A stretch of DNA of 64,000 nt, from sequence record OW967251.1; one strand, written 5' to 3'. Below are positions 1,379 to 39,267 of the stretch, in pieces (within the stretch, counting starts at the first letter, position 1; each line of letters starts with the position of its first letter). The position numbers and the translations under genes are program-made. Source of the DNA: a plasmid. The notes under the pieces were generated by a model. That model saw only the letters and a program-made list of their open reading frames with translations. It was not told the origin of the DNA and made no database searches.

Positions 1379-1485
1379 TTCCTTCTTTTGTTTTTTTTGT
1401 TTTCCAATTTTCTGAAATACGGCGTGCGGTTTATTGCTTCAGGACAGCTATCCGGAGGCTGTTATTAGTTCTCTGCCACGCCAGT

Positions 1486-2490: not shown

Positions 2491-2838
2491 TTATAAATCT
2501 TTCCAGTCAGGTAATTTATTCACCTTTCGGCGCCACAGATGAAACAGTGCCATCGTCAGGCCAAATAACACGCCCGCAATAAGACTGATTTTGCAAGCGA
2601 ACAGGGGTGGCATCCCCTGGGCCCGCCACACCATCCAGTACATCCACAGTCCGTATCCGACGGAGAAAGAGCCTGCCATCACGCCAAAAACCTGCCAGAA
2701 CGGAGCAAACGGCAGCGGGGGAATGTTTATCCCCAGCCGCCACAACAGTCGTATCAGAAGCGGTGCATAATTGCTTTTCCACATCTTACAGCTGGCCATT
2801 ATCGCCAGCGCCTTTTGTTTCCGCGCTTCAAAATCCAT
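2491..2838 (-). CDS. Hypothetical small inner-membrane protein downstream of finO.
   Basis: 115 aa ORF with 3 predicted hydrophobic helices (LAIMASCKMW..., GVMAGSFSVGYGLWMYWMVW, ISLIAGVLFGLTMALF). Confidence 0.45.
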   Translation of the reverse strand: MDFEARKQKALAIMASCKMWKSNYAPLLIRLLWRLGINIPPLPFAPFWQVFGVMAGSFSVGYGLWMYWMVWRAQGMPPLFACKISLIAGVLFGLTMALFHLWRRKVNKLPDWKDL

Positions 2839-2857
2839 TTCCTCTCCTCGATTGTAT

Positions 2858-3454: not shown

Positions 3455-3611
3455 AAGGGGCCATATCAATAAAAGCTACAGGTCTGTGCTATACGATACG
3501 CTAACGGTATCATCGTTTCACCTCGCAATGCAGTGGACACAACGATGATGTCCCCTTTGTCACGTTTACGGGCAATGTGCCCGCCCCCCGGACCTGTGTC
3601 CGGTTTTTTTT

Positions 3612-4337
3612 TTACATCGAGACGACAATACCGAGTACCGCCAGGTGCACCGCATAGAACATCACGAAGAACTGCCGCGGCCAGAAGCGTTTCACACGTT
3701 CTCCGGCAGATGAGCACACCATCAGCGTCAGCAGCGCAATCGCCAGCCCGGCCACTGATTCACTCACGTCATGCATATTCATCAGCAACACCATGAGGGC
3801 CCACAGCACCCCGTATCCCAGCCGTTCCTGTGCATGCTGTGCGCGACAAAGCAGCCAGCTGGCGGTGAGCATGCCCACTCCGGCCATGCCGTAGCTGGCG
3901 GTTGACAGGGGTATCCAGGCGACCAGCAGTCCAGCCGCCGGGAGGGTGTAATACCAGGACGGCTGGCTGACCCACCGCAGGACCTGGCCCGTGACGGCAA
4001 AGGCAAACAGAATATTCCCGGAATACCACGGGTACCCGATGAGCATAAACGACACCTGGGCGACCAGCGCCCAGCCCCACAGGCTGTTCAGCTGCGACTG
4101 GCGTATTTCCGCGTGCCGGGCCAGATTCATTCCCCATGCCAGACCGAACAGCGGAAAACAGCCCCGTCCCAGCAGGCGCATCACTTCATTGTTTCCGGCC
4201 AGCAGTAAGCCGGTGTGGTCAGTCACCATCAGTACCAGTGCGACCGTTTTAATCATATCCGTTTGTCCCGGTGCCCAGGTCAGCAGGCGATGAAGCCAGC
4301 GGTCTGTCGCACCTGGAAATGTGTGTTGTGCTCTCAT
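3612..4337 (-). CDS. traX: TraX, the F-pilin N-acetyltransferase.
   Basis: The DRWLHRLLTWAPGQTDMIKTVALVLMV motif matches F TraX (TDTWLQSLLVWSPGQRDIIKTVALVLMV). It is a polytopic membrane protein and is positioned after traI. Confidence 0.85.
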   Translation of the reverse strand: MRAQHTFPGATDRWLHRLLTWAPGQTDMIKTVALVLMVTDHTGLLLAGNNEVMRLLGRGCFPLFGLAWGMNLARHAEIRQSQLNSLWGWALVAQVSFMLIGYPWYSGNILFAFAVTGQVLRWVSQPSWYYTLPAAGLLVAWIPLSTASYGMAGVGMLTASWLLCRAQHAQERLGYGVLWALMVLLMNMHDVSESVAGLAIALLTLMVCSSAGERVKRFWPRQFFVMFYAVHLAVLGIVVSM

Positions 4338-4416
4338 GTTTTTTTCCTTTTAGCGCTCCGGCAGACTGCCCGATTTTAATCGGGGAGGCTGCCGGAGCAG
4401 ACAAGCCGCAGGCGCG

Positions 4417-11987: not shown

Positions 11988-12346
11988 GGCACTAATCCGT
12001 CAGTAAATTATTAGGGTCGAAAGGACAAATCAATCAGCGAAAACAAACCTCACGGCGTTGCAGGGAATAAGCCTCCCCCATAGCAGGGTGTGGATAAATA
12101 TCGCCAGGCATCAGTTTATGTGTTTCAAGAGACATGACAGGTTCAGATATTGCCATAAATAACCTCTATTCAAATAAAGACGAAAAGATTCCGCCGAAGG
12201 CGGCAACGCCTCACAGATGCACAAATAAATTGCGCAACTGTTCACCGTTCAGATCTGGAATTCATAGATTATTTGACGAATTAATTCTGACACACCAGAA
12301 AGGGGATGCCAGTATGGCCCGGGGACCGGGCCGTGGAATAGAAAGC

Positions 12347-13117
12347 TTACAGAATATTAGCGATCGATTTTGCCAGCTGGTCTTCAAGAACAGGCTGGGC
12401 TTCAGGGAACTTGAGGTTAACTTTATTAGCGTTAGAGACGACGCGAGTCTGGTATTTGTGCTGATTACCCGTTTCAGTACTTGTCTGCACTTTTGCGCCG
12501 GATGTTCCCTGACGTAATACGGCCACGTTATCAGTCTGAACCTGAGTTTTGGTTCTTTCCGCGATCTGAACATCGGTGATCATGGTGTAGTTCACATCTT
12601 CCACCATCGCGTCAGCAGCCATACCAACCAGACCGGCTGCAAGTCCTACACCCAGAGTCGCCCCTGCAGAACTGGAGTTGTAAGCGGTAATCCCTGCCCC
12701 TAAAGCGGCGCCAGTCACAGCGCCCTCATAACCCCGGCTTAACCAGCCCTGAGACTCACGAAGGTCCATTTTATCGGCCTTAAGCACGTTCGCCTGGATC
12801 CAGTAGCCCGCCGTATCCGGGTTACTGACGACCTGATATCCCTTTGAAGTGACGGCGCTGGCAATTTTTGCCTGCAGGCCACTCATATCCTTATCGGAGG
12901 TATTTTTGATTTGCAGATAAACCGTCTTATTATTTGAAGGTTCCAGCCAGATTGTTTCGCTCATCTGGGTTTTTACTTCCAGATTTCTCTTTTTAATGGC
13001 GGTTCCCATTGCACTACATCCAGATAACACCAGCGCAGAGCTGACGACCATCACAGCCATGACTTTATTAAGCTTCATCCTGAATCCTTGTGACATAATC
13101 AATACGAGTAAATACAC
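12347..13117 (-). CDS. traT: TraT, the surface-exclusion outer-membrane lipoprotein.
   Basis: Lipobox LSGC plus [21 protein letters not shown], which matches F TraT. 256 aa. Confidence 0.95.
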
Positions 13118-13267
13118 ATTCTCTTATGATTTCGGAATGCGCATTCACTATATGCGAATTTTAAGCGAGATGTAAAAACCAATAACAACCTAGACAGATA
13201 ATAATAACCAAAAGAAATTTTTAGTCTGTTAATAAACCACCATAATTGATAGGTCGCTTCTGGATGA

Positions 13268-13798
13268 TTACCCCCCCAACTTTTCCGCTCGGAAAGAGTT
13301 TATTGCAGAGGTGAGCAATGATAGCTGATAGCGTCCAAAATCCAGATTCATGACAAAACCAAAAAAAACAGACGTTAAAATAACCATAAATGCAAAAGAA
13401 AATGGCGTGTCATAAACCACTCTATTACAAATAGCTAATAACATAATCACTGCCATGTACACAACAGCATAAATCAAAACCTTCTTAGAAAAAAAGCGAT
13501 ATATATTCGATTTTTCTCTAAAGTTTTTAGGAACTGACAAAAAGAGAGAGCGTGAACTGGCAATACCTAGGAGCATAATGATACTGACCCCGACAGGAAA
13601 AACCAAAACATGAAATATATACTTTCCGGTCAAATAAACAGCATCCACACTAATTACAGCGCAAAGCATATTCCATGCAACTAACACTACGCCAGGCCAA
13701 AGGCACTTCCAAAAAGATGGAATTTCAGTCTTCCCTTGTGAAAGTAGATTTTTCAGCTCCTCCACTTCCTCAATAAGTAGTTTGTTCGTAATCATCAT
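13268..13798 (-). CDS. traS: TraS, the entry-exclusion inner-membrane protein.
   Basis: 176 aa and very hydrophobic. It sits between traG and traT as in F. TraS is poorly conserved in sequence, so this call is by position. Confidence 0.6.
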   Translation of the reverse strand: MMITNKLLIEEVEELKNLLSQGKTEIPSFWKCLWPGVVLVAWNMLCAVISVDAVYLTGKYIFHVLVFPVGVSIIMLLGIASSRSLFLSVPKNFREKSNIYRFFSKKVLIYAVVYMAVIMLLAICNRVVYDTPFSFAFMVILTSVFFGFVMNLDFGRYQLSLLTSAINSFRAEKLGG

Positions 13799-13800
13799 TT

Positions 13801-16650: not shown

Positions 16651-18020
16651 TACAGATTCCCCCCAAAATGATAGTTATTCTGGTAGCGGGTCATCATGCG
16701 GGCAGAGACCTGCTGGCGCATGTAACTCATTTGCCTGTCAACCACAAGCAAGGCGTCCTGCTGAACCTGAACACGGGACTGAAAAGCGGCAATCTGGACA
16801 CTCGCCTGATTGAGGTTTTCCATGATCATATCCATTGTCGACTGGGGATAATTACCGGTTGAAATCATCGCCCGGGCCTGCTGGATAAGTTCCTGAATGT
16901 ACTGCAGCAGGATGTCGTAGCCGATATAGTCCGTCAGCTGGTAAATAAGTGAGTTAGACACCCCGAGCATCTGCGGATCGACCAGGTATTTGAATACCGG
17001 AATGGTGGTGCTGGAGATAAACCCTTTCTCCTGATCCGTCAGTTTTTCATCAGCCACTGCTTTATTCTGGATACTGCTTAACAAAGCGGAAATCTGGCTT
17101 TTTAGCGCTTTACTGGAAGTGATGGTCACGGTCGCATCAGCAACGACCTTAAGACACTTATCCGAATCATTGCAGTGGTAGATTTTAGCCGTGCCGCCCT
17201 CCATCATGGCTCTAATCAGATCCTGGTCAGTGGTGCGTGCCGGCAGCGGCGTGATTTCACTGTTCTCCCCGAAAATCAGCGTACCGGTGAGCGTCATGAT
17301 GAATTCCTTCAGCTCCTTATTGCCGTCGAAGAGCCGGTTCTTCGATAAGGCATTCCACATGATGTTGATGTTTTTCATCACACGTTCTTTGTCTTTATCG
17401 CTGGCCTTATCCTGGACGCTGTCCATCTTGCCGCCCACCGTACAACCCTGGCGCGACGCGGCCCAGTCCGAAAAGATATTGCTTTCACCGGCAATGTCCT
17501 GGCAGACCTTTTGTTGAGCGACCTGGGTACGAGGAAACAGGCCACCCACAATTCCCTGAGCAGCCTGGCAGGAACTGAGGTTCATGCTGTTCATGTCAGT
17601 GGCCATCTTTTGAAGGAAGTCCTTTGCGGTTTTAATCTCCGGTACCGTGGTTTGCAAAGCGAGATCAAAAAAGTACCCCGCGGCGTTGCTCATGATTTGT
17701 TTTGCGAACCTCTGCAGCTGCTCGCTGTTGATATAGCTGAATGACCCTAGATAGGCATCAATCCCTCCGCAGCCGGCATTAATATCAGGGAGCGTCATGC
17801 TGACCAGCTGGATCGTTTTCACCTGCGTTCTGGCATACAGCGAACCGCCGGAGGCGTAACCCGCAGCCTGTCCCTGCCAGACCTGCGGCTGGCTGGTATT
17901 GGACGCAAAGCCCAGCTTATTGAAGAAGTTATTCATGTCACCGTTAACATCTGCAGCCGCCGTCAATGACACCCCTAGCAACATCCCACAAAGCACCGAT
18001 AATGGTTTACGGATGAACAT
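16650..18020 (-). CDS. traH: TraH, the pilus-assembly protein.
   Basis: 456 aa with a signal peptide and F-TraH-like sequence. Its position matches F synteny. Confidence 0.93.
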   Translation of the reverse strand: MFIRKPLSVLCGMLLGVSLTAAADVNGDMNNFFNKLGFASNTSQPQVWQGQAAGYASGGSLYARTQVKTIQLVSMTLPDINAGCGGIDAYLGSFSYINSEQLQRFAKQIMSNAAGYFFDLALQTTVPEIKTAKDFLQKMATDMNSMNLSSCQAAQGIVGGLFPRTQVAQQKVCQDIAGESNIFSDWAASRQGCTVGGKMDSVQDKASDKDKERVMKNINIMWNALSKNRLFDGNKELKEFIMTLTGTLIFGENSEITPLPARTTDQDLIRAMMEGGTAKIYHCNDSDKCLKVVADATVTITSSKALKSQISALLSSIQNKAVADEKLTDQEKGFISSTTIPVFKYLVDPQMLGVSNSLIYQLTDYIGYDILLQYIQELIQQARAMISTGNYPQSTMDMIMENLNQASVQIAAFQSRVQVQQDALLVVDRQMSYMRQQVSARMMTRYQNNYHFGGNL

Positions 18021-18435
18021 CAGGCTCTCCTTCTTTCATTTTATTTTTCCGTCGAAGGTTGCGGTTTAAATATCTCTGGAAGCTTTTTTCAAAGGCATAT
18101 TCAAACCAAAAAGCTAGTTCGGCAATGAGTACCCCCAGCAAAGCCGTTGCCAGACAACCAATGGAAAGCGAGAAAAGAATAAAGGGAACGAAATACATCA
18201 GGACATTCCACTGATTGATGATGTTATTTGCCGACTCCAGTTTTTCCGGCGGGGTTAACAGGTCAGTGAACACATTGAAAAAAGCATGGCTTCCCCACCA
18301 CAGAAATAATCCGGCAAAACCAAACATAAAAGCGAGACAATAATAAACATCGAATCTCTTTTGCCGGGATAACTTCAGGCGTTTATTTCTTTCCAGTACG
18401 GGTATCGAAGAATATATTTTGTTGAGATTATCCAT
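18007..18435 (-). CDS. trbF: TrbF-like small membrane protein.
   Basis: 142 aa with 2 transmembrane segments, immediately upstream of traH as in F. Confidence 0.55.
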   Translation of the reverse strand: MDNLNKIYSSIPVLERNKRLKLSRQKRFDVYYCLAFMFGFAGLFLWWGSHAFFNVFTDLLTPPEKLESANNIINQWNVLMYFVPFILFSLSIGCLATALLGVLIAELAFWFEYAFEKSFQRYLNRNLRRKNKMKEGEPDVHP

Positions 18436-20366: not shown

Positions 20367-20552
20367 TTATGGCATTAATCGTCTGGCTATAATCGTGAGA
20401 ACAAAAATAAACAATAAAGATCTAACAACCACGAACCCATCATCGCTCGTTAATAACGTTGCCATGTTAATTATCAACAGAACAGGAATAAGGATTACCC
20501 CTGCTAACCTGAACCAATCTTTAAACTTATTAAACCTGCGCACCGTCTTCAT
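20367..20552 (-). CDS. Hypothetical small membrane protein (61 aa).
   Basis: ORF with one transmembrane segment. Its end overlaps the upstream ORF by 4 nt, which suggests translational coupling. Confidence 0.35.
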   Translation of the reverse strand: MKTVRRFNKFKDWFRLAGVILIPVLLIINMATLLTSDDGFVVVRSLLFIFVLTIIARRLMP

Positions 20553-20785
20553 TCTTCCTCCGTCTTTTTCCGTAACAACGCGGCAAGCGAACTAAAAAAG
20601 AGATAGCTCACGAACCAGAAAAAACCAACCGCAACAATAAAAACCACACTCTCGACATAATCACTCCCCGACGTCGCTTTGACGGCATCCCAGGAGAAAT
20701 AAATCACCGGTGAAATAATGATTATTGTCAGCGTTAATCTCAGAACAAAATCAATGGCATGCTGTTTGTGAAAATTAATTTTCAT
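20549..20785 (-). CDS. TrbE-like small membrane protein (78 aa).
   Basis: Two transmembrane helices. It is immediately downstream of traN, where trbE lies in F. Confidence 0.4.
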   Translation of the reverse strand: MKINFHKQHAIDFVLRLTLTIIIISPVIYFSWDAVKATSGSDYVESVVFIVAVGFFWFVSYLFFSSLAALLRKKTEEE

Positions 20786-25100: not shown

Positions 25101-25492
25101 TACTGTTCTCCTTTCATGCGGCGGGCAATGTCGTGCTGGATGTTGCGGGTCACATCGGGCGCGCCCTGAACCACGGCAGGTGAAACCAGAATGACCACAT
25201 GATGCTGCTGCTGATACTCCGCCAGACTCTTCTCCAGCGCGTCGTTAAACCGGTCAGAGAGCGCTTTTGACTGCGCTTCTGTCAGCTGCTTCTGACTGAC
25301 ACTGTCCATAAAGCTGTCGAGCGTCTTCTTCATATCAAAAGCCACCACTCGCGGCGTGGAGTACTCCAGAACCACGCGTGAGAGAAACGCGCTGGTTGCC
25401 AGGGCGAAAAGCACGAGAGCAACGATGACAGATATCCGGCGAAAGGTATGAGAGGTCGTACTGACCGGTTGTTCGGTGTTGTTTTTCATCAC
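25100..25492 (-). CDS. trbI: TrbI.
   Basis: 130 aa with an N-terminal transmembrane segment. It lies between traC and traW as in F. Confidence 0.82.
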   Translation of the reverse strand: MMKNNTEQPVSTTSHTFRRISVIVALVLFALATSAFLSRVVLEYSTPRVVAFDMKKTLDSFMDSVSQKQLTEAQSKALSDRFNDALEKSLAEYQQQHHVVILVSPAVVQGAPDVTRNIQHDIARRMKGEQ

Positions 25493-28128
25493 TGTTTATC
25501 CTCCATGTCATTCACCGGTATTCGGGATTCAAGCTCAGCCATTTCGTCTTTAAAGTTGCGGCACGCCAGTCCGTATACCGCATCGTGGATATCGACCCCC
25601 TCCTGCCGGCGTGCTTGCATGTACTCAAAATCCGGGCCTTTGGAGGAGTACATCGCCCGGCTGAGCGGGTCGACGAACAGGCGGTGCCAGGAGCAGTTCG
25701 CTTCCACCTGCAGCATAAAAGAGGAGAACCACTGCTCTTTGGCCGAACCGAAGCCGTTAATCATGTCTTTCTCCAGCTTGCTGAACTGATCCGGGTACAG
25801 CTGGTTATACTTGGCAAATTCCTTCGCTGACTGCTTCAGAATGGCCTTGTACGACGAGTTCCCCCACGCTGCACGTGCGGCGCTGGAGGCGGTCGGGGAG
25901 TCGAAGTCGACGATGTTCTGCGTGATGGTGATGTATGCGCCGGTATGTCGACGCGCGGTACGGTAGCCTTTCTCGATAAACTGCCCCACTTTTTCATTCT
26001 TGAAATCAAGGAGCTTCCAGCCCTCATCGATGACGTTCAGTTTTTTCAGGCCACGCGGTGACTGATACATCCTGTTCTCGATGTAAATAATCAATGAAAA
26101 CATCACAGCGATAAGCAGAGAGGGCCTCGACTCCAGGCCACCGAGTTCCAGTACCACCATCCGGGCATCATCGTGGAGTGTTGGTTTATCTGAGTTGAAA
26201 TAGTCCCCGTAGATCCCATTCACCGTGTACTGATCGAGCAGGATTATCATCTCGTCCAGACGGCCCCGGATTGTCGGGGAATCAGCATATTCATCGCTGT
26301 CCTTCGCGTCCTGTAAAAACTGCACTACGTCATCAACGCGTGCCTGATTACGTTTGCTTAACCAGGCCGCCTGAACTGCCTGCAGAAGCAGGCCTTCATG
26401 GACTTCATCGAGGTTGCCGTTCGGACTGGCCATCACCGACATCTGATCGCGTATACGTTCTGCTGACATGTCGAAGTGAGCATCATCCAGCACGTTGGCG
26501 AATGGGTTAAACTTGAGGGTATCGCCATCGAGATATACGCCCCCCATGTTTTCACACAGGGACTTATAGCCATCGCCCATATCGAACACCCAGGCAAACC
26601 CGCCGGAGTCGAGCACACTGCGAATGAGGGGCTGAATCAGACCGGTTTTACCCGCCCCGGACGTCCCGCAGACCGCCATGTTGAAATTGGTATTGTTCAT
26701 TCCCTCGTAGAACAGGTCGATGAACGCCAGCTGGTTTCGGTAGGTGGGCGCCAGGAGTCCCGCCGGCGCCAGCGGGCTGTCAGCGACGATCGGCAGGAGG
26801 TTAGCCACCTGGAACGTCTCCGCCCGCTTAACCACGCCTGCCGCCTGCAGCTCTTTAAACAGACCCTCACCACACTTGAACGGCATCATGGCCAGAAAGT
26901 TACGCAGGTGATGGTAGCGGGCCGGGATAAGCTGGAAACCGCCTTTACGGTAGCTGTTGAGCACCTGCTGTTCAGCGGCGAGAGAGGCCTCTGTGCTGTC
27001 TGCGGTGTACGTGGTGATATTAAAGAAATAGGACACCAGGGAGGTCTGGTTGGTCGACAGTCGCTGGCGGATATCGCCCCACTCCTGCATTTCCTTTATC
27101 ACGTTCGGAAAGTACTTCGCGTAGGAGGTTTTGCTTTTCTTCTCCACGTCCATGAACTTCAGGTTGGCTTCGTTCTGGGTCTTCACCTGGTCCTCCACCA
27201 TCAGCGTCAGCGTGATGACAAAGGGGCAGGAAATGGAGAGCTCCGGGTTAAGCAGGTTGGCGTAGTTGTCCGCAGCGGTCCAGAGGAAGGCCATTTCCGG
27301 ATCACTCTCCAGATGGTAGCTCGTCACCCGGGTCACGCACTCTTTCCCGTCGCGCCCCAGGCGGCCAATTTTCAGATGACCAGCGGTGACCTGCATATCA
27401 AAGCTGTCATCGACACACTGATAGTTCAGATCCTGATAGGGGTCCAGCTTATACGGTACGCGGTACATTTCGTGCGGGTCCGGGTTTATCAGCTCACGCA
27501 TCAGTTCGACCAGCCCGGACGCATCAAGGATACGCGTCGGAATATAGGCACCGCCCAGTGACGCCCGCAGGATTTTTATCTGGTTCTCCATCTCGACAAT
27601 TTGCGTGGTGGAGTTCTTCTTCCTGGGTACGCAGCAGGAGATGTACACGCGGTAGTTACGCAGCGTGAGGGGCAAATCCAGATCAGGAGGCAGGGGGAAC
27701 TTCGTCTCCGCTGCCCGGAGGTAGTAGGCCTGGGTAATGGCGTTAAACTTCTTAGCCTGTTTACCACTCCAGCGGAATTCACGCAGACCATAGTCGATAT
27801 CATTGCCGACCAGTTTGCTGGAGACCAGATGAAAACTGACCGGGACGCCCCGGGGAAGTTTGCTGCGCAGTAAATGCTCCAGTGTGGCGACGATACTTTT
27901 ATCCGCACCGGGTAAAGGACGCGCCTCAAACATAAAACCGACGGTTTTGTTATTAATAAACAGACCGGTCGCGGAATCATAATCCTTATAGGGCAGAATA
28001 CGGCTGAACTGGGGGAAATTCATGCTGCCCAGCGTGTCATTGGCTTTAGCGGATTCGTCGGGCAGCTTCAGTGCTGATACGAGTGAATTCACAGCCTGGG
28101 TGACGGTATCAATGATGTTATTACTCAT
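25489..28128 (-). CDS. traC: TraC, the VirB4-like conjugative ATPase.
   Basis: 879 aa. Walker A motif (GTSGAGKTG). Size and sequence are F-TraC-like. Confidence 0.97.
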   Translation of the reverse strand: MSNNIIDTVTQAVNSLVSALKLPDESAKANDTLGSMNFPQFSRILPYKDYDSATGLFINNKTVGFMFEARPLPGADKSIVATLEHLLRSKLPRGVPVSFHLVSSKLVGNDIDYGLREFRWSGKQAKKFNAITQAYYLRAAETKFPLPPDLDLPLTLRNYRVYISCCVPRKKNSTTQIVEMENQIKILRASLGGAYIPTRILDASGLVELMRELINPDPHEMYRVPYKLDPYQDLNYQCVDDSFDMQVTAGHLKIGRLGRDGKECVTRVTSYHLESDPEMAFLWTAADNYANLLNPELSISCPFVITLTLMVEDQVKTQNEANLKFMDVEKKSKTSYAKYFPNVIKEMQEWGDIRQRLSTNQTSLVSYFFNITTYTADSTEASLAAEQQVLNSYRKGGFQLIPARYHHLRNFLAMMPFKCGEGLFKELQAAGVVKRAETFQVANLLPIVADSPLAPAGLLAPTYRNQLAFIDLFYEGMNNTNFNMAVCGTSGAGKTGLIQPLIRSVLDSGGFAWVFDMGDGYKSLCENMGGVYLDGDTLKFNPFANVLDDAHFDMSAERIRDQMSVMASPNGNLDEVHEGLLLQAVQAAWLSKRNQARVDDVVQFLQDAKDSDEYADSPTIRGRLDEMIILLDQYTVNGIYGDYFNSDKPTLHDDARMVVLELGGLESRPSLLIAVMFSLIIYIENRMYQSPRGLKKLNVIDEGWKLLDFKNEKVGQFIEKGYRTARRHTGAYITITQNIVDFDSPTASSAARAAWGNSSYKAILKQSAKEFAKYNQLYPDQFSKLEKDMINGFGSAKEQWFSSFMLQVEANCSWHRLFVDPLSRAMYSSKGPDFEYMQARRQEGVDIHDAVYGLACRNFKDEMAELESRIPVNDMEDKQ

Positions 28129-28199
28129 GCGGTCGTTCCTTTAAAAGCATTTCAAAACAACAAGGGTAATAAATGGCAAGAAGAATATTCATAGCCGCA

Positions 28200-28598
28200 C
28201 TAGAAACTCCTTCTTATAATGGAAAGCACAGGAATGAAAAACAATAAACACATGGAGGCAATAATCTGACCCATAAAGATCGCATCCAACAACATCGCCC
28301 CTTGCCACAAACAAATAAGCAGAGTGATAAATAATAAAACCACATGAAAGAAAACAATCAGGAACAGAATGTTCGCTGAGAACTCCCCATCACTAACTTC
28401 CACCTCTAAGCAGAAAAAATAAAAGATACACAAACTACAGATAATATAGATGCCTTCATGTCGAATACCCTGAAAGAAATCAGGAGAATACTCTCCTGCC
28501 AGTCCATTGTAAGTCAGCCTAGCTCCCAGATAGATGAGCCAGTAGACTGGAGGGATAAACAAAAATCCATACTTTCTAAAAAACAGCATCATATCCAT
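28200..28598 (-). CDS. Island ORF7: hypothetical polytopic membrane protein (132 aa, ~4 transmembrane segments).
   Basis: AT-rich ORF in the traV-traC interval. It is strongly hydrophobic. Confidence 0.5.
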   Translation of the reverse strand: MDMMLFFRKYGFLFIPPVYWLIYLGARLTYNGLAGEYSPDFFQGIRHEGIYIICSLCIFYFFCLEVEVSDGEFSANILFLIVFFHVVLLFITLLICLWQGAMLLDAIFMGQIIASMCLLFFIPVLSIIRRSF

Positions 28599-28605
28599 CC
28601 TCTGA

Positions 28606-28863
28606 TTATTTGCTTATAGCGTTCAGTGAGTTAAGTTGTTTATATTTCTCGTTACATTTAGCGGCAATTTTCTTCGCATCGCGAAGGGTTAATGGTCCCT
28701 GGCTATTACGGAGTGCCGTTCGAAAATCCTCACCGGCACAGGGTATTGCATGAGAAATCATTAATAACTGTTCTTCAGTCGCTGTACCGTTATCTCTGTA
28801 ATCATCGTAAACAAGATACAGCAGACCACCCCAAAAAAAAGAGTGGAAAGGCCCAGTTAACAA
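28606..28863 (-). CDS. Island ORF6: hypothetical 85 aa protein with an N-terminal hydrophobic segment and 2 Cys.
   Basis: ORF lying 7 nt upstream of ORF7 on the same strand. Confidence 0.45.
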   Translation of the reverse strand: MLTGPFHSFFWGGLLYLVYDDYRDNGTATEEQLLMISHAIPCAGEDFRTALRNSQGPLTLRDAKKIAAKCNEKYKQLNSLNAISK

Positions 28864-28893
28864 TGTTTTTAACCGCGCTCGCGACGTTTACTT

Positions 28894-29328
28894 TCATTTT
28901 TTATTCGCCTGGTATAATTCCCACTGATGGATATACGCATAATACCGCTCACCTGGCACATTAATGATGATGCCATCACAGTCCAGTTTATTAACAGGGC
29001 TGGTAAAAGCGCCTGTCGGTATGTTTACTTCAAGTGTCTTGCAGTCGTTTTTCCAGTGTCTACCTGCTTCAAGTTCATCCATCGAAAATGAGTGAATGGA
29101 GATAACGAACATCCCGCAAAACCCAACCACCGCTATAAGTGCACAGTATATGAATGTATCACCTCTGTTAACTCCAAGATTGAATTTTTCAGGGATGGCA
29201 ACCATTGCCAGCGCACCGACCACACCAATAACAAAAAGAATCAGGCATATACCGTTAAGCCATGCAACGTTATGTCCAAGTATATAGTACGTTTTCACTT
29301 TCTTATTCCTTATGCTGCATACTTTCAA
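28894..29328 (-). CDS. Island ORF5: two-transmembrane protein with a C-terminal Cys-pair domain that is paralogous to ORF2.
   Basis: The C-terminus GRHWKNDCKTLEVNIPTGAFTSPVNKLDCDGIIINV aligns with ORF2's HHWTHDCRLLETNIDKGFFSPAQNRLQCGDVIENV. Confidence 0.55.
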   Translation of the reverse strand: MKVCSIRNKKVKTYYILGHNVAWLNGICLILFVIGVVGALAMVAIPEKFNLGVNRGDTFIYCALIAVVGFCGMFVISIHSFSMDELEAGRHWKNDCKTLEVNIPTGAFTSPVNKLDCDGIIINVPGERYYAYIHQWELYQANKK

Positions 29329-29364
29329 ATAACGTGAGATTGTTAATACTGACCATCGGTCTTA

Positions 29365-29682
29365 CTATTCACCTGCCCCCATCTGATCAAAGGAATAAAT
29401 CAAGACATAAAACATATAAAAGATCACTGTGGCTGTAAAAAATCCCGTTATTACTGACAGCGTCAAATCAGGAGAACCGGCCCACATGTTTTTATCCATG
29501 AACACCATGAAAGAAAATAAAGCACTGAGACCTGTAAGCCCAAACAACATTAAAATATAGGCAAGCGCATCTCTTATAAAAACACCCATAATTACATAGC
29601 CGTAACCACAGATAATGATTGCCATTGCAAAAAACAGTCGTACATAACCATCACTATCAAAACTTAACAGAGATTCAGCCAT
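29365..29682 (-). CDS. Island ORF4: hypothetical 3-transmembrane protein (105 aa).
   Basis: Hydrophobic ORF. It abuts ORF3 with 0 nt gap. Confidence 0.5.
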   Translation of the reverse strand: MAESLLSFDSDGYVRLFFAMAIIICGYGYVIMGVFIRDALAYILMLFGLTGLSALFSFMVFMDKNMWAGSPDLTLSVITGFFTATVIFYMFYVLIYSFDQMGAGE

Positions 29683-29901
29683 TTACCCACCCTCACTCAA
29701 TGTTTCCATCACGCTGTTCAAAGGCTCGCGTGTTTTAATTTCAATGCACTCTCCTGTATTACTTCCGTAACCTCTGCCTCCACGTGCTTCGAGTACCCGT
29801 AGCATTTTTATGCAGACATCTGTATTAGGCATGGGAGTAATATCCCAAATCCCACCGCCACTACTCGGCGTCATCAGCACCAGAAAAATAAAGGCATGCA
29901 T
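29683..29901 (-). CDS. Island ORF3: small secreted protein (72 aa) with a signal peptide and 2 Cys.
   Basis: N-terminus MHAFIFLVLMTPSSGGG, followed by a hydrophilic domain with C-x20-C. Confidence 0.45.
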   Translation of the reverse strand: MHAFIFLVLMTPSSGGGIWDITPMPNTDVCIKMLRVLEARGGRGYGSNTGECIEIKTREPLNSVMETLSEGG

Positions 29902-29924
29902 ACTTTATTGCCTCTGTTTATATA

Positions 29925-30215
29925 TTAACGAATGAATATTTCTTTCATTGTCTCTGCGAGAGTTGTTTGCTTATCGCCACTTATCGCTCTGTCATAATCA
30001 GCCTTGCTGACATTTTCAATAACATCACCACACTGAAGTCGATTTTGCGCAGGAGAGAAAAACCCTTTATCAATATTAGTCTCAAGCAACCGGCAGTCAT
30101 GAGTCCAGTGGTGCGCGAGCGCCTCTGGTACAGGGTCATTACTGGAAGTAAAGAGAAAGAGATATACTAAAAATAAAGAAGCCAGAGCAAGCAGCCATTT
30201 GAATAATTCATCCAT
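29925..30215 (-). CDS. Island ORF2: membrane-anchored protein (96 aa) with the same Cys-pair domain as ORF5.
   Basis: Signal-anchor LLALASLFLVYLFLF, then the HHWTHDC...CGDVIENV domain. Confidence 0.55.
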   Translation of the reverse strand: MDELFKWLLALASLFLVYLFLFTSSNDPVPEALAHHWTHDCRLLETNIDKGFFSPAQNRLQCGDVIENVSKADYDRAISGDKQTTLAETMKEIFIR

Positions 30216-30219
30216 AACG

Positions 30220-30630
30220 TTACTTACCCTCCGTACTGAGTTTATTAATCTCTGCCTTATCTCTGTATCTCACATCCATATACCGTGTTACGCCATCCGG
30301 GCAAGACCAGGCATCTTTTGCTTTAGCCAGAAACCCTGCCTGCTGCGCTTCAAATGCGGAGATTCTGCAGTTTTTCAGCGTATAGATGACATCCTGTTTT
30401 CTGGTTTGAATCTGTTTGTATGTTGACTCAGGCTCAAGAAAGCCAAAAACTTCTGTAATCGCGACGACAATACACATTATCAGAATGATTGACTTACCCC
30501 ACCAGGACACAAACAACCTCTGCAAAAAGAAAGACATTACTACGGTAGTGACAATAACCAGCATCAACATAAAAATATATGACGAATCCTCGCGCAAAAG
30601 CAGCCATAGATATTTCATTGAGTCAGTCAT
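30220..30630 (-). CDS. Island ORF1: two-transmembrane protein (136 aa) with a C-terminal soluble domain carrying 2 Cys.
   Basis: ORF with an ATG start. It is AT-rich and sits 4 nt upstream of ORF2. Confidence 0.5.
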   Translation of the reverse strand: MTDSMKYLWLLLREDSSYIFMLMLVIVTTVVMSFFLQRLFVSWWGKSIILIMCIVVAITEVFGFLEPESTYKQIQTRKQDVIYTLKNCRISAFEAQQAGFLAKAKDAWSCPDGVTRYMDVRYRDKAEINKLSTEGK

Positions 30631-30724
30631 TTTTCAAATCCTTTCATTTTTCGTTACCGACGTTCATTTCACACGCTACCGCCCATCCCTTTCAACGCAG
30701 AGGGCACTCGTTTTAATTCAGAAA

Positions 30725-30760
30725 TGAAAACTTACTGCAGCGCCAGTAATGGCGCTGTAA
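30725..30760 (-). terminator. Terminator-like hairpin immediately after the traV stop codon.
   Basis: On the minus strand, a perfect 7-bp stem (CAGCGCC/GGCGCUG) with a 6-nt loop is followed by AGUAAGUUUUC. Confidence 0.3.
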
Positions 30761-30761
30761 A

Positions 30762-31331
30762 TCAATTAAGGCGAGGTTGTCCCCACGCCGATGGTTTTAC
30801 GACAAAAAGAACCGTTGCCGGCTGGTGATATACATCATCTGCATCCACATACGGCGCTATCCACAATGACGTTGTCTCCTCCCCGTTTCTTAATGGTCGG
30901 GGATAATTACCCGGAATTGTCGCCGGAGAAGTATAAGTACTAAGACTAACTGGCCTGATATATACCGGAGCAGTCCGTGTTCTCAGGACGTCATCATAAT
31001 TGACCGGTACCGTATTCAGGAACCCGGGTTTATTACTCACCGTCACAGATGGCGCTGTATTACGCCCTGGATTAATTACTGGCTGTGGCGGCAGCGGATA
31101 TGAGTTTGGCGACGTCGTTCTGAAATTTCCGTCAGCCAGTCGTGGCAATCCGGCCGCAGCCGGCTTTGCGTCACTGCGTTCCTCTTTCAGCTTAGCTTTT
31201 TCATTTGCCTGTTCCATCGTCATACAGGTATCCGACGTCGTGGCATTACATTGAAATTCGGTCTCTGTGCCCGCACACCCGGTTAAGAGCAAAGCGCTGC
31301 CCAGAGGAATTAACAGCATTAATTCCTTCAT
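30762..31331 (-). CDS. traV: TraV, the outer-membrane lipoprotein of the pilus assembly core.
   Basis: Lipobox LLLTGCAG. It is proline-rich and matches F synteny. Confidence 0.85.
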   Translation of the reverse strand: MKELMLLIPLGSALLLTGCAGTETEFQCNATTSDTCMTMEQANEKAKLKEERSDAKPAAAGLPRLADGNFRTTSPNSYPLPPQPVINPGRNTAPSVTVSNKPGFLNTVPVNYDDVLRTRTAPVYIRPVSLSTYTSPATIPGNYPRPLRNGEETTSLWIAPYVDADDVYHQPATVLFVVKPSAWGQPRLN

Positions 31332-34998: not shown

Positions 34999-35367
34999 TC
35001 AGTAACCGGCGACCGACATACCGATGGTGATAAAGGTGGAAATAATCGCGAAGCCAAACAGGAACTTCACGTTTTTGGTCATCATGTACATGATGCCGCC
35101 GGCGACAACTTCTGCCAGAACCACCCATTTGACGACACTGGACTGCTTACCAAACGTGCCTTTAACGGTCGCATCCCCGGACTTCATCAGGTCGGTTGCC
35201 GTGGTGGTGGCCATCGCAGCATCCGGGAAGAACGCCGCCACAGCAGCAACCGGCAGCGCAACTTTAGCGACTTTCAGGGCTTTCTTTTTATTGAAAACGC
35301 GAGACAGAAAAGACGGTTTGGTTTTTTCAGGGACAGCAGAGCCCTGAACACTTAATACAGCATTCAT
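34999..35367 (-). CDS. traA: TraA propilin.
   Basis: Starts MNAVLSVQG and ends ...[35 protein letters not shown], which matches F pilin. Confidence 0.95.
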
Positions 35368-35420
35368 ATTTATTTCCTTTTAAATAGATAATGTTTAAAT
35401 GGTAATACCTTCGGGACTAC

Positions 35421-35807
35421 TTATGTTTCAGATTCAGACCTCCTTATCACTTCGACTTCAGAGCTATAAAAATCAGGAAATTCCAACAGATGCGCTTTAA
35501 GGCGAAGGTAAACTTCGAGCGATTTCGAGCGTCCACTTCTGTTTTTTGCCTTAATTAACATTTTGTTAGTTTGTTCATCAAACCGAAGAAATAACCGTTT
35601 TTCTCGTTTTTCTTCAGCACAGTAAATTTTCTGAACATCGTAAAAATCAGGAAACTTCCTTAGATGATCATCAACACGCAGTTGAACTTCCGTGCCTTTA
35701 ACTCGACCACTCCTGCGTATTGCTAATGTCAGATGCTGATAAGTTTCATCGTCACAGGTAAAAACAACTGCACTACCTGCAGCAGGACGATTAACAAGTC
35801 GTTTCAC
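35421..35807 (-). CDS. traY: TraY, the ribbon-helix-helix oriT accessory protein.
   Basis: The motif IKAKNRSGRSKSLEVYLRLKAHLLEFPDFY matches F TraY (IAAKNRSGWCKTDEA...HLIKFPDFY). Confidence 0.85.
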   Translation of the reverse strand: MKRLVNRPAAGSAVVFTCDDETYQHLTLAIRRSGRVKGTEVQLRVDDHLRKFPDFYDVQKIYCAEEKREKRLFLRFDEQTNKMLIKAKNRSGRSKSLEVYLRLKAHLLEFPDFYSSEVEVIRRSESET

Positions 35808-35885
35808 CTTAACCCCTCCTGGAAAAAGCTAAAAGAATTGTTCTCCATTTTCCAATAAAAGGCAATGGTGAAAATGTCATCGATT

Positions 35886-36572
35886 TTATAACAATCTGTT
35901 AACATGCCGAGTGATAATATCCCTGACATTTTTCATTACCGGTTCCAACAGCTCACTTAGATGAAGAACGATGAAGGCATCATCACGACTACTAATATTA
36001 AGCTTGGTTAGTATTTGACTGCTTTTATTTCTGGAAGATCCGTTTTCCAGTCCAAGAAACTGCCCCATAATCTTGTGACTTGCACCGCCTGCATAAAACC
36101 CAAAAAAATCATACTCACTTTTATCAAGCCTTTTGACAGCCCTCATAAAATTAACGACATCCGCATGCAGGGGAAGAGATCTTGTTATTCTTTTAATGGA
36201 GTTTGATGCCCTTCCAAACTTCCATAAAAAGTGGACAGCACCATCACTGACAAATTCCTCGATCATAAAATCAAATTGCTTTCCATTGATATAAATACAT
36301 CTTTCAATATGGAAGTTAGATTGTTCAATTTGAATCAGTAGTTCTAACTCTCGAAGTCCAAGAAAGGTGTCAGTACCAATCAGTTCCTCCCAACTTCGTT
36401 CGGACTGCAAAGCGCCCCCGAACTCATACAAAAATGCTGAATTGAATGCCGGAAATTCTCCTGACTGATTATGAATACAAACCGGGAAAGAATAGTGCAT
36501 GATGAGCGCCTCAAGAGAAGAAGCGAGGGATTGACGGCAGGTGTCTTTTTCATTACGATCCATCGGATACAT
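35886..36572 (-). CDS. traJ: TraJ, the transfer activator.
   Basis: An internal MYPMDR start matches the F TraJ N-terminus. The locus is AT-rich and divergent, as is typical for traJ. Confidence 0.8.
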   Translation of the reverse strand: MYPMDRNEKDTCRQSLASSLEALIMHYSFPVCIHNQSGEFPAFNSAFLYEFGGALQSERSWEELIGTDTFLGLRELELLIQIEQSNFHIERCIYINGKQFDFMIEEFVSDGAVHFLWKFGRASNSIKRITRSLPLHADVVNFMRAVKRLDKSEYDFFGFYAGGASHKIMGQFLGLENGSSRNKSSQILTKLNISSRDDAFIVLHLSELLEPVMKNVRDIITRHVNRLL

Positions 36573-36579
36573 AGAGGCC

Positions 36580-36670
36580 TCCTTGTTAGGTCTACTATGG
36601 GCAGTAGGTATGAGAAGGTGAATGCTTCTCATACCTGCGAAACTCAAATTTTCACTTACTATTTGAAAAA
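36580..36670 (+). ncRNA. finP: Putative finP antisense RNA region in the traJ leader. This is positional only.
   Basis: FinO is present. F-like plasmids encode finP antisense to the traJ 5' UTR. No structure was verified here. Confidence 0.2.
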
Positions 36671-36745
36671 ATAATAATGCATTTATAATTACATGTCATC
36701 TATAAAAGACCGAGTTTTATTCTTTTTATACCCTGTGCATCAGCA

Positions 36746-37144
36746 TTAATCATTAGTATTATTTACCTCATCCTCTTCAGGGAAATACATACGCATAACT
36801 TCCTGCACGTCTTCCTGAATATTCTGAATGATCCCTTTCCATTGCCATCGAGGGTCATCCTTTACATGGGGACTGAGGCATTCAATACCCAAAACTTTAT
36901 TCATAGAAAACTGTGTTTTAACTACATATTCGAATAAAGCCTTATTGAATGCCATCTGATTGAAACCAGACTCCTTACGTTCCATTTGAGCTTCATACAC
37001 ACGAAGCCCAAGCTCAATGAGCATCGAACTGATACTTGAAAAATTCACATCCTTGTCCTTAGCACCGCCAGCACGACGCTGCTCAATGATTGCATTGATT
37101 TTCTCAACAACCTGATCACTTATATAAACCTGCACTCTTGGCAT
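36746..37144 (-). CDS. traM: TraM, the relaxosome accessory protein.
   Basis: The stretch VQVYISDQVVEKINAIIEQRRAGGAKDKDVNFSSISSMLIELGLRVYEAQMERKES is near-identical to F TraM. The start is at the internal MPRVQ. Confidence 0.9.
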   Translation of the reverse strand: MPRVQVYISDQVVEKINAIIEQRRAGGAKDKDVNFSSISSMLIELGLRVYEAQMERKESGFNQMAFNKALFEYVVKTQFSMNKVLGIECLSPHVKDDPRWQWKGIIQNIQEDVQEVMRMYFPEEDEVNNTND

Positions 37145-37213
37145 AGCAAATCCTTTCTTATTAAGAGTGAATACTAACAACACACATATAGAATTTTCGT
37201 CCAACAAACTCAA

Positions 37214-37560
37214 GATTAGAGTCCAGACTACACTCTAGAGTCTAGAGCATAAAGTATCTCATCAAAAGGGACTACACTCTAGAGTGCAATCCCAATTATC
37301 CATCTGATTTTATAGACGATAGTCGTTATCGACTCTAAAAAGACTCTATCCAGACTCTATTTAGAGTCTGGATAGAGTCTGTTTATACTTTCTAAATGAA
37401 AGAAACAGAAAGTTCACTCACATAAGCTCATAATTTAAAGGATAAATCTGCAAAATTTTAATTTTGCGTGGGGTGTGGTGATTTTGTGGTGAGGAGTGCA
37501 TATATGTTGAGTCTCGGTCTTGGATGGGTTAAGGTTATTCCGGGATTTGGCACGGAGGGG
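37214..37560 (+). other. oriT: oriT, the origin of transfer. It carries an F-type nic motif and putative TraM/TraY/IHF binding palindromes.
   Basis: TTGCGTGGGGTGT|GGTG at about 37461-37477 matches the F nic site. A perfect 19-2-19 inverted repeat AGACTCTATCCAGACTCTA..TAGAGTCTGGATAGAGTCT lies at about 37353-37392. Direct repeats GACTACACTCTAGAGT occur twice at about 37232-37285. The region lies between traM and gene X. Confidence 0.8.
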
Positions 37561-37565
37561 AATTC

Positions 37566-38051
37566 ATGAAGGGAGTAGCGTTTGGTATCATCCTGTCTTT
37601 AATACCATTGTCATCAATGGCAGCAGACTGCTTTGATATGGCTGGCAGGGATTACAAAATTGATCCGGATCTCCTGCGTGCTATATCATGGCAAGAATCA
37701 CGATTTAAAATTGATGCGATTGGGCGTAATCCTGTTACGGGTTATGGATCAGGCTTGATGCAAATTGACTCGCAGCATTTCAACGAACTGTCGCGATATG
37801 GAATAAAACCGGATCATCTTCTTAGCGATGCTTGTCTTAACATCTACACCGGAGCCTATTATCTGGCTCAGGCGTTTAAAAAGTGGGGCGTTTCGTGGGA
37901 TGCAGTCGGGGCATACAATGCAGGCTTCAAAAAGACCCCGCGCCAGGCAGCAAGACGTTACGAGTATGCGAAGAAGATCCATTACTACTACACGGCTATC
38001 AAAGCAAGCAAACGAACTTCTTCTAAAGATCAGAAAATCGCCATGAACTAA
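37566..38051 (+). CDS. Lytic transglycosylase (gene X / orf169 / P19 family).
   Basis: Signal peptide plus the motifs AISWQESRF and GLMQI, and SLT-domain catalytic glutamate context. This is its classic position next to oriT. Confidence 0.88.
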
Positions 38052-38083
38052 AAAGCCTTCTGATATAAGAAGGCTTGAATTTC

Positions 38084-38416
38084 TTAAAAATCTACGGCAT
38101 CTATACCTGGATAATAATCGGCATCACTATCAAAATGAAAAAGCAGATACCCGCCCTCCCGGTGCATTAGTATGAGATTTTTGCGTAAAAATTTTGACAC
38201 CCCACCTCTTTTTAGCGCCAGAAGATGGCGTTTGAAATCATACATCCTTATAACACAACCATAAGGTGTATCATGTATCCACTCTAAGTAACTATCGCAA
38301 GTTAGATAATTGGTTGTTGATGAAAGCACCTGAAGAACTCTGATATCACCTTCTTCCATATGTGAAATACTGATACAGACAGCTTTAAATTCAAACATAA
38401 GTATTCCCACCATCAA
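38084..38416 (-). CDS. Hypothetical leading-region protein (110 aa).
   Basis: ORF downstream of the DUF932 gene. Confidence 0.4.
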   Translation of the reverse strand: MMVGILMFEFKAVCISISHMEEGDIRVLQVLSSTTNYLTCDSYLEWIHDTPYGCVIRMYDFKRHLLALKRGGVSKFLRKNLILMHREGGYLLFHFDSDADYYPGIDAVDF

Positions 38417-38445
38417 AACGCCGGACAGCTGCCCGGCGCTTATAA

Positions 38446-39267
38446 TTAGCCTTTAAGAGTGCGGAATTTCTCCGCAATTAACCACAATGCCTTATTGAGT
38501 TTAACATCACCATCGATTGCTTTTACTGGCCGGGTTGTTGTTCTTTTCCCTTTTTCAGTTCGGCCAGGCAAACCGCCTTTAATCAGATTTTCCTGGACCC
38601 TTTGATATGTAGTCCAGATGTCATCTTTTTTATCTTCATAACGGCGCGGATGAATTATCTGTTCAATACTGACCGGAGATTTATTTTCATCTTCATATCG
38701 GTAGGTTAATGCAGCTTGTCCAAACAGACGCTGTTCTTCCTTGGTTAAGGCAATAGACTTCATGACATCAACGCCTTCAGTTATTTTATCGAAAATTCCC
38801 AGAACTTCGTAAGCACCTTCGATAACCCTTCCCACAATATCACCTTTATGAGGTACACGAATCTCACCAAACGACGTACCGCACACAAGGCCATTTGTGC
38901 ATACAAAACGGAACATACCCGGGATCATTTGATAACTGGACGATCCATCATGCGAGTTAAGAAGAATGATTTCGGGTACTTCTGTTCCTTTATTGGCCCC
39001 TTCACGGCGAAGTCTTACCATATGCTTAGTATGCCCCCGTTTATCCTCATCCCTTACTCGTGACTGACAGGCAAAAAATGGCTGGAAACCTTCTTCACGT
39101 AATTTATCCAGCAGTGTAATGGTTGGAATATAGGTATAGCGATCACTACGTGAATTATGCTTTTCTTCTGAAAACACAGAAGGTACAACCTTGACTAATT
39201 CATCGTTAGTCAGTGGGCGTTCCTGACGAATGGAATGAGTAAGTCCAAATCGGGATGCTAAACGCAT
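38446..39267 (-). CDS. DUF932-family leading-region protein.
   Basis: Start at MRLASRFG, preceded by an AGGAG ribosome-binding site. The longer track ORF reads through into repeat copy A. It has the conserved DUF932-like core (HDGSSSYQ, FRFVCTNGLV). Confidence 0.7.
   Translation of the reverse strand: MRLASRFGLTHSIRQERPLTNDELVKVVPSVFSEEKHNSRSDRYTYIPTITLLDKLREEGFQPFFACQSRVRDEDKRGHTKHMVRLRREGANKGTEVPEIILLNSHDGSSSYQMIPGMFRFVCTNGLVCGTSFGEIRVPHKGDIVGRVIEGAYEVLGIFDKITEGVDVMKSIALTKEEQRLFGQAALTYRYEDENKSPVSIEQIIHPRRYEDKKDDIWTTYQRVQENLIKGGLPGRTEKGKRTTTRPVKAIDGDVKLNKALWLIAEKFRTLKG

Follow-up and report, generated by a model that had tools for sequence, protein, structure and literature searches.

The traV-traC interval of IncFII(K) plasmids is one form of a variable accessory slot in F-like transfer operons

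We analyzed a 64,000-nt stretch of plasmid DNA (OW967251.1; hereafter, the window), in which an F-like transfer (tra) operon carries seven small, packed open reading frames (ORFs) on the minus strand between traV and traC (positions 28200-30630). These ORFs were named O1 to O7 in their minus-strand order from traV to traC. Comparison with related loci showed that F-like tra operons have a variable accessory slot at this position, of which the block is the IncFII(K) (pKpQIL/pBIC-1a-type) form, and that the cassettes in the slot have been gained, lost, duplicated, and often pseudogenized. Several of the cassettes are under purifying selection, yet they appear individually expendable.

The comparison set consisted of the window and 14 loci anchored by traV and traC (15 in total), which were derived from Escherichia coli, Klebsiella electrica, K. 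quasipneumoniae, K. aerogenes, K. michiganensis, K. grimontii, Raoultella, Gibbsiella, Entomohabitans, and others. The traV-traC interval was 0.65-3.5 kb long with a GC content of 0.39-0.46 in 15/15 loci, and the sets of cassettes differed. The complete order O1-O2-O3-O4-O5-O6-O7 was common to the window and the K. quasipneumoniae locus L005. K. electrica carried an 81-amino-acid (aa) ORF with two transmembrane (TM) segments, an O2-like gene, and a 62-aa cytoplasmic ORF, followed by O5, O6, and O7, whereas Gibbsiella carried O2, O5, O6, and a frameshifted O7, and the Raoultella interval contained three O2/O5 paralogues. The minimal interval, found in a Klebsiella sp. plasmid (L017), consisted of O5 alone in 653 bp. 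Pseudogenes occurred among several cassettes: O6 in the window and L011, O2 in L007, O1 in L012, and O7 in L009. The E. coli plasmid pMS20658 had the order traV, traR, two yfhA-like ORFs (137 aa and 157 aa), homologues of O3 (69% identity) and O6 (35% identity), and traC. In a second E. coli plasmid (L003), an O4 homologue was accompanied by a fusion of an O6 homologue to a C-terminal remnant of O5. According to the literature, yfhA follows traR in R100 and has no counterpart in F. The occurrence of O3, O4, and O6 homologues beside traR in E. coli IncF plasmids means that the "traR only" arrangement of F is one state of the slot, and that the Klebsiella cassettes are no simple replacement of traR. 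A preliminary description of the window had placed the block "in place of traR"; traR is indeed absent here, but the coexistence of these homologues with traR in E. coli does not fit a simple substitution.

The slot is bounded by conserved sequences. On the traV side, a 40-nt non-coding box (30673-30712, minus strand; AACGAGTGCCCT[C/G][T/C]GCGT[T/G][G/A]AAAGGGATGGGCGGTAGCGT) lies approximately 50 nt past the traV stop codon and forms the 5' edge of the variable cassettes. The box was near-invariant in 15/15 loci from five genera, was kept whichever gene came next (traR, O1, O2, F8, F12, or O5), and was better conserved than the neighboring 3' end of traV. Thousands of plasmids from E. coli, Salmonella, and Klebsiella also carry an unannotated match to it at 93%. 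Within the box there is a hairpin, CCCTCTGCGTTGAAAGGG, the antisense strand of which reads as a terminator-like hairpin with a T run. Furthermore, RNAalifold applied to the 15 loci predicted a GC-rich hairpin directly after the traV stop codon (30738-30757, minus strand; CAGCGCC-ATTAC-TGGCGCTG); the E. coli loci have a different self-complementary sequence at this position, GCCGGC-AAT-GCCGGC. No Rfam match was found within 27.5-31.5 kb. At the right edge, upstream of the traC start codon, conservation among the 12 loci aligned was limited to the ribosome-binding-site region. No signature of mobility was detected, as the direct and inverted repeats flanking the block were only short chance repeats, and the traV-traC interval contained no recombinase ORF. 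With conserved flanks and no flanking repeats, the exchange of cassettes by homologous recombination is the simplest explanation.

To estimate selection, dN/dS (the ratio of nonsynonymous to synonymous substitution rates) was computed for the window versus L005. The values were low for O3 (0.09), O4 (0.13), and O7 (0.15), intermediate for O2 (0.34), O5 (0.42, from five changes only), and O1 (0.45), and 0.99 for O6, for which a pseudogene was compared with an intact allele. In the same comparison, a patch comprising O1 and O2 showed approximately 15% nucleotide divergence, versus 1-4% for O3, O4, O5, and O7. Protein length was mostly constant within the homologue families; for example, O5 homologues were 134 aa long across 46-100% identity. 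The low dN/dS of O3, O4, and O7, together with the conserved lengths and motifs, indicates that the proteins matter. The cassettes are therefore real genes, of which O1 and O2 are unusually polymorphic. They nevertheless appear dispensable, as judged from the pseudogenes, from a frameshifted O6 allele in 437 plasmids, from L017 with O5 alone, and from a divergent F-like operon in which traC comes right after traV.

The block is a common one. Many K. pneumoniae IncFII/IncFIB plasmids, pBIC-1a among them, matched a 2.7-kb region at 100% identity, and megablast searches of PLSDB matched this region in at least 2,338 plasmids, 2,214 of which were from Klebsiella and 2,271 of which were predicted to be conjugative. 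This DNA thus belongs to the backbone of a very common plasmid group and is not a rare insertion. These matches, and the AT-rich cassette array in every related locus examined, speak against an unusual, one-off insertion. When the cassettes were counted individually in PLSDB with tblastn, O1 was found in 1,922 plasmids (816/1,922 below 80% identity), O2 in 1,882, O3 in 3,566, O4 in 2,289, O5 in 2,547, and O7 in 2,354 (142/2,354 below 80% identity). O1 and O7 were almost confined to plasmids of the Klebsiella group, and O2 and O5 mostly so. O3, with 948 plasmids from Escherichia, 94 from Salmonella, and 93 from Shigella (1,135 together), is the most widely conserved cassette of the seven.

The block is also transcribed. 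In published RNA-seq data for the near-identical plasmid pBIC1a in E. coli, the five hypothetical ORFs annotated between traV and traC had values of 7-14, compared with 11 for traC and 21-22 for traV, traP, and traB (PMC6286996). Within 27.9-31.5 kb of the window, there was no excess of promoter-like or terminator-like sites. A transcript level similar to that of traC, combined with the lack of such an excess, makes co-transcription with the tra operon well supported, in agreement with the earlier suggestion that these genes are co-expressed with the mating apparatus. Within the stretch to which the annotation of pBIC-1a (L010) was transferred, the window matched that plasmid base for base only at 26024-28187; the gene coordinates of pBIC-1a are valid in the window from traG (13801) onward. 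The pBIC-1a annotation includes canonical traS and traT between the traG and traD genes of its tra operon. On this traS/traT/traD side (approximately 1-13800), the window has insertions and deletions relative to pBIC-1a and represents a different variant in the exclusion-gene region; the GC values obtained there were therefore discarded.

The anchors of the block in the window, like the cassettes, lie on the minus strand. Upstream, traV (30762-31331) encodes a 189-aa lipoprotein (Pfam TraV, E = 3e-13) and is labeled traV in the identical plasmid region; downstream, traC (25489-28128) encodes an 879-aa ATPase, according to the annotation of the identical region. Between them, O1 (30220-30630; 136 aa) was defined from its ORF and hydropathy. 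O2 (29925-30215; 96 aa) has one TM anchor and a two-Cys domain, O3 (29683-29901; 72 aa) was modeled as a soluble alpha/beta protein, and O4 (29365-29682; 105 aa) is polytopic, with approximately three TM segments. O5 (28894-29298; 134 aa from a GTG start) has two TM segments and a two-Cys domain. O6 (28606-28897) is a frameshifted pseudogene with an open piece at 28606-28863 (85 aa, TTG start), and O7 (28200-28598; 132 aa), the last cassette before traC, is polytopic with approximately four TM segments. The O5 frame is open back to a TTG at 29328; however, both the Prokaryotic Genome Annotation Pipeline (PGAP) and the homologue families favor the GTG at 29298, which is the likelier start. The spacers between successive ORFs are 4, 23, 0, 36, 30, and 7 nt, and a Shine-Dalgarno-like motif precedes every ORF except O6. 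Start/stop coupling occurs among the genes, with the O4 ATG lying immediately 3' of the O3 stop codon. The seven co-oriented ORFs and the gaps of 0-36 nt thus stand as they were first described, but the pseudogene O6 leaves six intact genes. The topology classes proposed at that time are likewise supported by hydropathy, apart from O3, the hydrophobic N-terminus of which was modeled as part of a beta-hairpin rather than as a signal peptide.

The composition of the block deviates from that of the plasmid backbone, as expected of an island, in both GC content and GC content at third codon positions (GC3). Its GC content was 0.408, as against 0.545 for traC, 0.50 for traV, 0.52 for traP, and 0.57 for traB, which bears out the original remark that the block is more AT-rich than the flanking tra genes. 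GC3 was also lower, at 0.37-0.49 versus 0.57-0.73 in the core tra genes, so the AT bias is not merely a by-product of hydrophobic residues. The proposal of horizontal acquisition accordingly retains its support from a composition foreign to the core tra genes, but the flanks bear no mobile-element signature. Three further small ORFs in the tra operon were equally AT-rich, at 18007-18435 (142 aa), 20367-20552 (61 aa), and trbE at 20549-20785 (GC 0.37-0.41; GC3 0.44-0.47). With such ORFs elsewhere in the operon, low GC seems to be a general property of its small accessory genes. Upstream of the tra operon there is a second long AT-rich stretch (35250-39250; GC 0.38-0.43), which surrounds traL/traA/traY/traJ/traM and extends past them.

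TraR was sought as a protein of approximately 73 aa with a CxxC-x17-CxxC motif between traV and traC, and none is present there. As previously stated for the window, TraR was absent from the whole 64 kb: the best tblastn hit with E. coli TraR had E = 0.28, and a scan for C4 motifs returned only two sites unrelated to TraR, at 55.9 kb and 58.7 kb. The latter (approximately 58686, minus strand) reads CxxC-x16-CxxC (CACCGHTAKENRQTQSKFVCQVC), and its ORF, which has no relation to TraR, may encode a zinc finger like that of TnpB/IS605-type proteins. O1 to O7 had no significant match in Pfam, NCBIfam, PADLOC, or PHROGs. Against the Pfam and NCBIfam models of Tra and Trb proteins (TraP, TrbD, TrbG, TrbI, TrbE, TraQ, and TraS), there was no match at E ≤ 1, whereas in the same scan the neighboring genes matched TraV and TraP strongly; the original statement that none of the seven corresponds to a named Tra or Trb protein was thus upheld. 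Literature searches covering WP accessions, phrases describing the interval, yfhA, and transposon screens turned up no work on the function of these ORFs, and a comparative-genomics paper on F-like plasmids does not treat them. The databases contain thousands of entries for these genes under the name "hypothetical protein".

O2 and O5 are paralogues (blastp E = 1e-9) that share a previously undescribed C-terminal domain of approximately 50 aa following one or two N-terminal TM segments. Hydropathy gave O2 one TM segment with C41/C62, and O5 two TM segments with a Cys pair 21 residues apart. Both carry the motif G-x-[HY]-[WY]-x3-C-x-L-x-E-x-N-I-x2-G-x-F-x4-N-[KR]-L-x-C-x3-I-x-N-V-x4-Y, in which the Cys, Glu, Asn, and Cys are invariant among diverse members (alignment A5); in the family alignment made for O2, a Trp is invariant as well. 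In the members with two TM segments, Lys and Arg are abundant in the loop that joins these segments. The positive-inside rule therefore makes it probable that the two-Cys domain is periplasmic, a location in which a disulfide bond would be expected. O5 homologues formed 87 clusters, mostly 134 aa in length and all "hypothetical", and an exhaustive hidden Markov model search of 1.84 billion representatives recovered 99 clusters of the O2/O5 family at E ≤ 1e-3 (42-291 aa). No Pfam model covered the family when eight relatives were scanned, sequence-profile searches of the PDB found no solved relative, and a PHROG scan of 20 relatives yielded nothing consistent. No relatives were found in the viral contigs of IMG/VR, and the distant O2/O5 subfamily was not found in the GTDB representative genomes. 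The AlphaFold2 (AF2) model of O5 had a confident TM hairpin and a Cys loop with a predicted local distance difference test score (pLDDT) of approximately 50, too uncertain for a structure search.

Members of this family also occur outside the traV-traC interval, often in pairs. In the divergent F-like operon in which traC directly follows traV, a tandem O2/O5-family pair lies between traB and traV. A 57-kb plasmid carries two copies downstream of genes for a coupling protein, topoisomerase III (topB), and an H-NS-like protein (hns), and in a metagenomic plasmid-like contig, the neighbors of a 291-aa member are a gene similar to VirB1, a faint match to VirB2, and PemK/MazE. A tandem pair was also found on a short contig. 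The distant paralogues of the divergent F-like operon, the 57-kb plasmid, and the short contig, which form one tandem pair per locus, are located at 7534-8354 in L027, at 8001-8372 and 10033-10386 in L023, and at 71-823 in L021. Moreover, an O2-like gene is paired with an O5-like gene outside the transfer operon in L015 (4441-5405) and L020 (15160-16106; pNUITM-VR1_1 and 13 similar megaplasmids). These are MOBH/MPF_F megaplasmids of approximately 280-400 kb from Klebsiella and Raoultella, and the pair has PIN, HNH, RES-toxin, and restriction-modification genes as neighbors. On those of approximately 380 kb, the nearest annotated transfer gene is 14 kb or more away from the pair. Every distant relative with an informative context was on a conjugative plasmid. 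The O2/O5 family is therefore linked to conjugative plasmids and often paired, and it is bound neither to the traV-traC position nor to one type of type IV secretion system (T4SS).

O1 has two TM segments and C88/C110, as judged from its ORF and hydropathy, and its C-terminal domain has a conserved motif, TLKNC-x21-C-PDG-TRY; it shares 77% amino acid identity with its counterpart in L005. The "lipase chaperone" label given to O1 by PGAP/RefSeq is spurious, because the underlying NCBIfam match scored 12.1 bits (E = 0.083; cutoff, 728 bits) and spanned 43 residues. This label is found in hundreds of RefSeq/PGAP records, an annotation error that is spreading. O1 and O6 resemble O2 and O5 in architecture alone, with a TM anchor and a Cys pair 22 or 28 residues apart, and were rejected as O2/O5 paralogues (hhalign probability of approximately 1% per comparison); they have no detectable kinship to each other.

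The AF2 model of O3, built from an alignment of 21 sequences, had a beta-beta-alpha-beta-alpha topology (pLDDT 79.6; predicted template modeling score, 0.63). In this model, the N-terminal hydrophobic stretch forms the first strand of the beta-hairpin, so O3 is probably not secreted and is predicted to be a small soluble cytoplasmic protein. The alpha/beta sandwich is a generic fold, and structure comparison found no informative neighbor. O3 is 69% identical to a 72-aa E. coli ORF adjoining traR. The O4 homologue in the E. coli locus L003 is 107 aa long, and O7 has 69 homologous clusters from Klebsiella and its relatives, all "hypothetical", with full-length members of 126-132 aa.

In L005, the intact O6 allele encodes 96 aa, and its start codon overlaps the stop codon of O5 (ATGA). 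In the window, a run of eight T residues at 28833-28840 (T8; T7 in intact alleles) splits this ORF into 31-aa and 85-aa pieces, and the block therefore consists of six intact genes and one pseudogene. The exact T8 allele occurs in 437 PLSDB plasmids, pBIC-1a among them, and is unannotated in these records. Near-matches at 95-99% were found in approximately 224 records; the three of these that were listed cover 70 nt, as expected of the T7 allele, and are annotated as a coding sequence. The T8/T7 state could reflect simple decay or on/off switching by strand slippage. Full-length O6 homologues in other loci, including those of E. coli, are 96-136 aa long. In L003 (E. coli pCombat2C1-1; 2649-3410), an in-frame O5 C-terminal remnant (…VNKLDCAGVIVDVP…QWELYKAK) precedes the O6 homologue, which suggests that O5 and O6 were an ancestral coupled pair. 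An IS2 copy interrupts the traV-traC interval of this plasmid.

As to function, the explanation that we favor, at slightly less than an even chance, is that the products are envelope proteins that modulate the donor envelope or the F-type machine without being essential, with O2 and O5 possibly forming a heterodimer. Under this explanation, the cassettes would be exchanged by homologous recombination on the conserved flanks; O1, the O2/O5 pair, and O6 would be anchored in the inner membrane with small periplasmic domains, each with one disulfide bond; O4 and O7 would be small polytopic membrane proteins of the donor envelope; and O3 would be a small cytoplasmic alpha/beta protein. The products would modulate the envelope or the F-type secretion/pilus machine while it is being built, without being core parts, in a mode like that of the small dispensable F proteins TraP, TrbI, TrbD, TrbE, and TraR, and the predicted O2/O5 heterodimer may contact a conserved component of the envelope. 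Several observations weigh against this explanation. No cassette had a homology or structural match to a known function, and AF2 modeled the two-Cys domain with low confidence. The location of the O2-O5 pair far from T4SS genes on the megaplasmids disfavors a strictly structural role in the machine. Moreover, O1 and O2 are far more polymorphic than their neighbors, as would equally be expected if they determined specificity or exclusion.

This polymorphism would suit a module for exclusion, immunity, or plasmid competition, in which O1 and the O2/O5 pair would act in plasmid-bearing cells, blocking related T4SSs on entry or interfering with co-resident plasmids, alongside TraS and TraT. Entry-exclusion proteins are typically small and located in the inner membrane or periplasm, as O1 and O2/O5 are predicted to be; the O1/O2 patch is hyper-divergent relative to the remaining intact cassettes, and homologues below 80% identity are far more frequent for O1 than for O7. 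The O2-O5 pairs outside tra operons on MPF_F megaplasmids and on plasmids with other T4SSs also fit a portable, self-contained function. However, canonical traS and traT are already annotated in the tra operon of pBIC-1a, the dN/dS of O1 and O2 (0.34-0.45) is not above 1, and a Pfam scan found no similarity between O1-O7 and known exclusion proteins. Exclusion determinants normally co-vary with the cognate T4SS, whereas plasmids with different T4SS types share the same core residues in the two-Cys domain. We regard such a module as unlikely, though still a serious contender. Decay offers another account, in which orphan genes drifted into a permissive slot and bring no benefit. Frequent pseudogenes, the presence of the O6 frameshift in 437 sampled plasmids that belong with pBIC-1a to one allele group, and the fact that F and the divergent F-like operon manage without these cassettes are all in its favor, but low dN/dS in several cassettes, the persistence of the O2/O5 domain, repeatedly paired and with its invariant residues, in distant plasmids, and the retention of O3 across genera make it improbable. 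Alternatively, the AT-rich DNA itself may be functional, as a cis-acting H-NS- or Rho-sensitive stretch that lowers the expression of traC and distal genes and in which the ORFs are largely incidental. The interval has a low GC content in every locus whatever its set of cassettes, and the RNA-seq values fall approximately two-fold from traV/traP/traB to the block and traC. Against this, O3, O4, and O7 are under purifying selection (0.09-0.15) with conserved lengths and motifs, and the sense strand has no excess of terminators, so that we consider a cis-acting role quite improbable. Finally, the defense against pilus-specific phages that the preliminary description had offered as a candidate role appears very improbable. 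Small membrane proteins can serve as superinfection-exclusion factors, and the logic of expressing a defense together with the phage receptor speaks for it. However, O1-O7 had no PADLOC match at E ≤ 1, neither the ORFs of the block nor the 20 O2/O5 members had a consistent PHROG match, and the O2/O5 family had no relative in IMG/VR viral contigs.

A broader proposal, which we put forward as speculative and doubtful, is that the O2/O5 pair represents a previously undescribed family specific to conjugative plasmids, comprising inner-membrane-anchored, disulfide-bonded periplasmic mini-domains that occur as tandem pairs in F-like, IncX-like, and VirB-like plasmids. Such a pair might have a portable function related to conjugation, either in a second exclusion or inter-plasmid interference system or as an envelope adaptor in T4SS assembly; O1 may be its specificity partner, and the 40-nt box may be an anchor for exchange or regulation.

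The closest known systems are the traV-traR-traC region in F and, in R100 and other E. coli IncF plasmids, the region of traR and yfhA; both occupy the same position in the operon and have the same 40-nt box after traV. Like the block in the window, these regions consist of small genes that are unnamed or non-essential, and the E. coli IncF plasmids have O3, O4, and O6 homologues in common with it; in contrast, the window lacks traR and a yfhA-like gene, and F itself has none of O1-O7. TraP, TrbI, TrbD, TrbG, and TrbE of F are likewise short inner-membrane proteins encoded within the tra operon, and they are dispensable for transfer. The trbE gene and the unnamed small ORFs of the window are AT-rich like the block, although O1-O7 did not match the Pfam models of TraP, TrbI_Ftype, or TrbE at E ≤ 1. 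TraS of F and Eex of SXT/R391 are also small, AT-rich inner-membrane determinants on conjugative elements and are hypervariable, as are O1 and O2. However, O1-O7 have no homology to these proteins, and the core of the O2/O5 domain is not specific to one system but is kept from one T4SS type to another.

These results correct the expectation, based on F, that the traV-traC interval holds traR only, and they expose the misleading "lipase chaperone" label. Four elements are new: the family of paired O2/O5 domains, the hypervariable patch of O1 and O2, the invariant 40-nt box, and the homopolymer frameshift that inactivates O6. In Klebsiella, KPC carbapenemase genes are carried mainly by pKpQIL-type IncFII(K) plasmids, and approximately 2.5 kb of the transfer operon of these plasmids, expressed with the mating machinery, is taken up by such hypothetical genes. 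Our analysis identifies this DNA as a standard, mosaic, and partly decaying accessory slot, the genes of which are unlikely to be essential for transfer; the block is thus a lineage-specific variant of a known phenomenon, the carriage of non-essential small ORFs in F-like tra operons.

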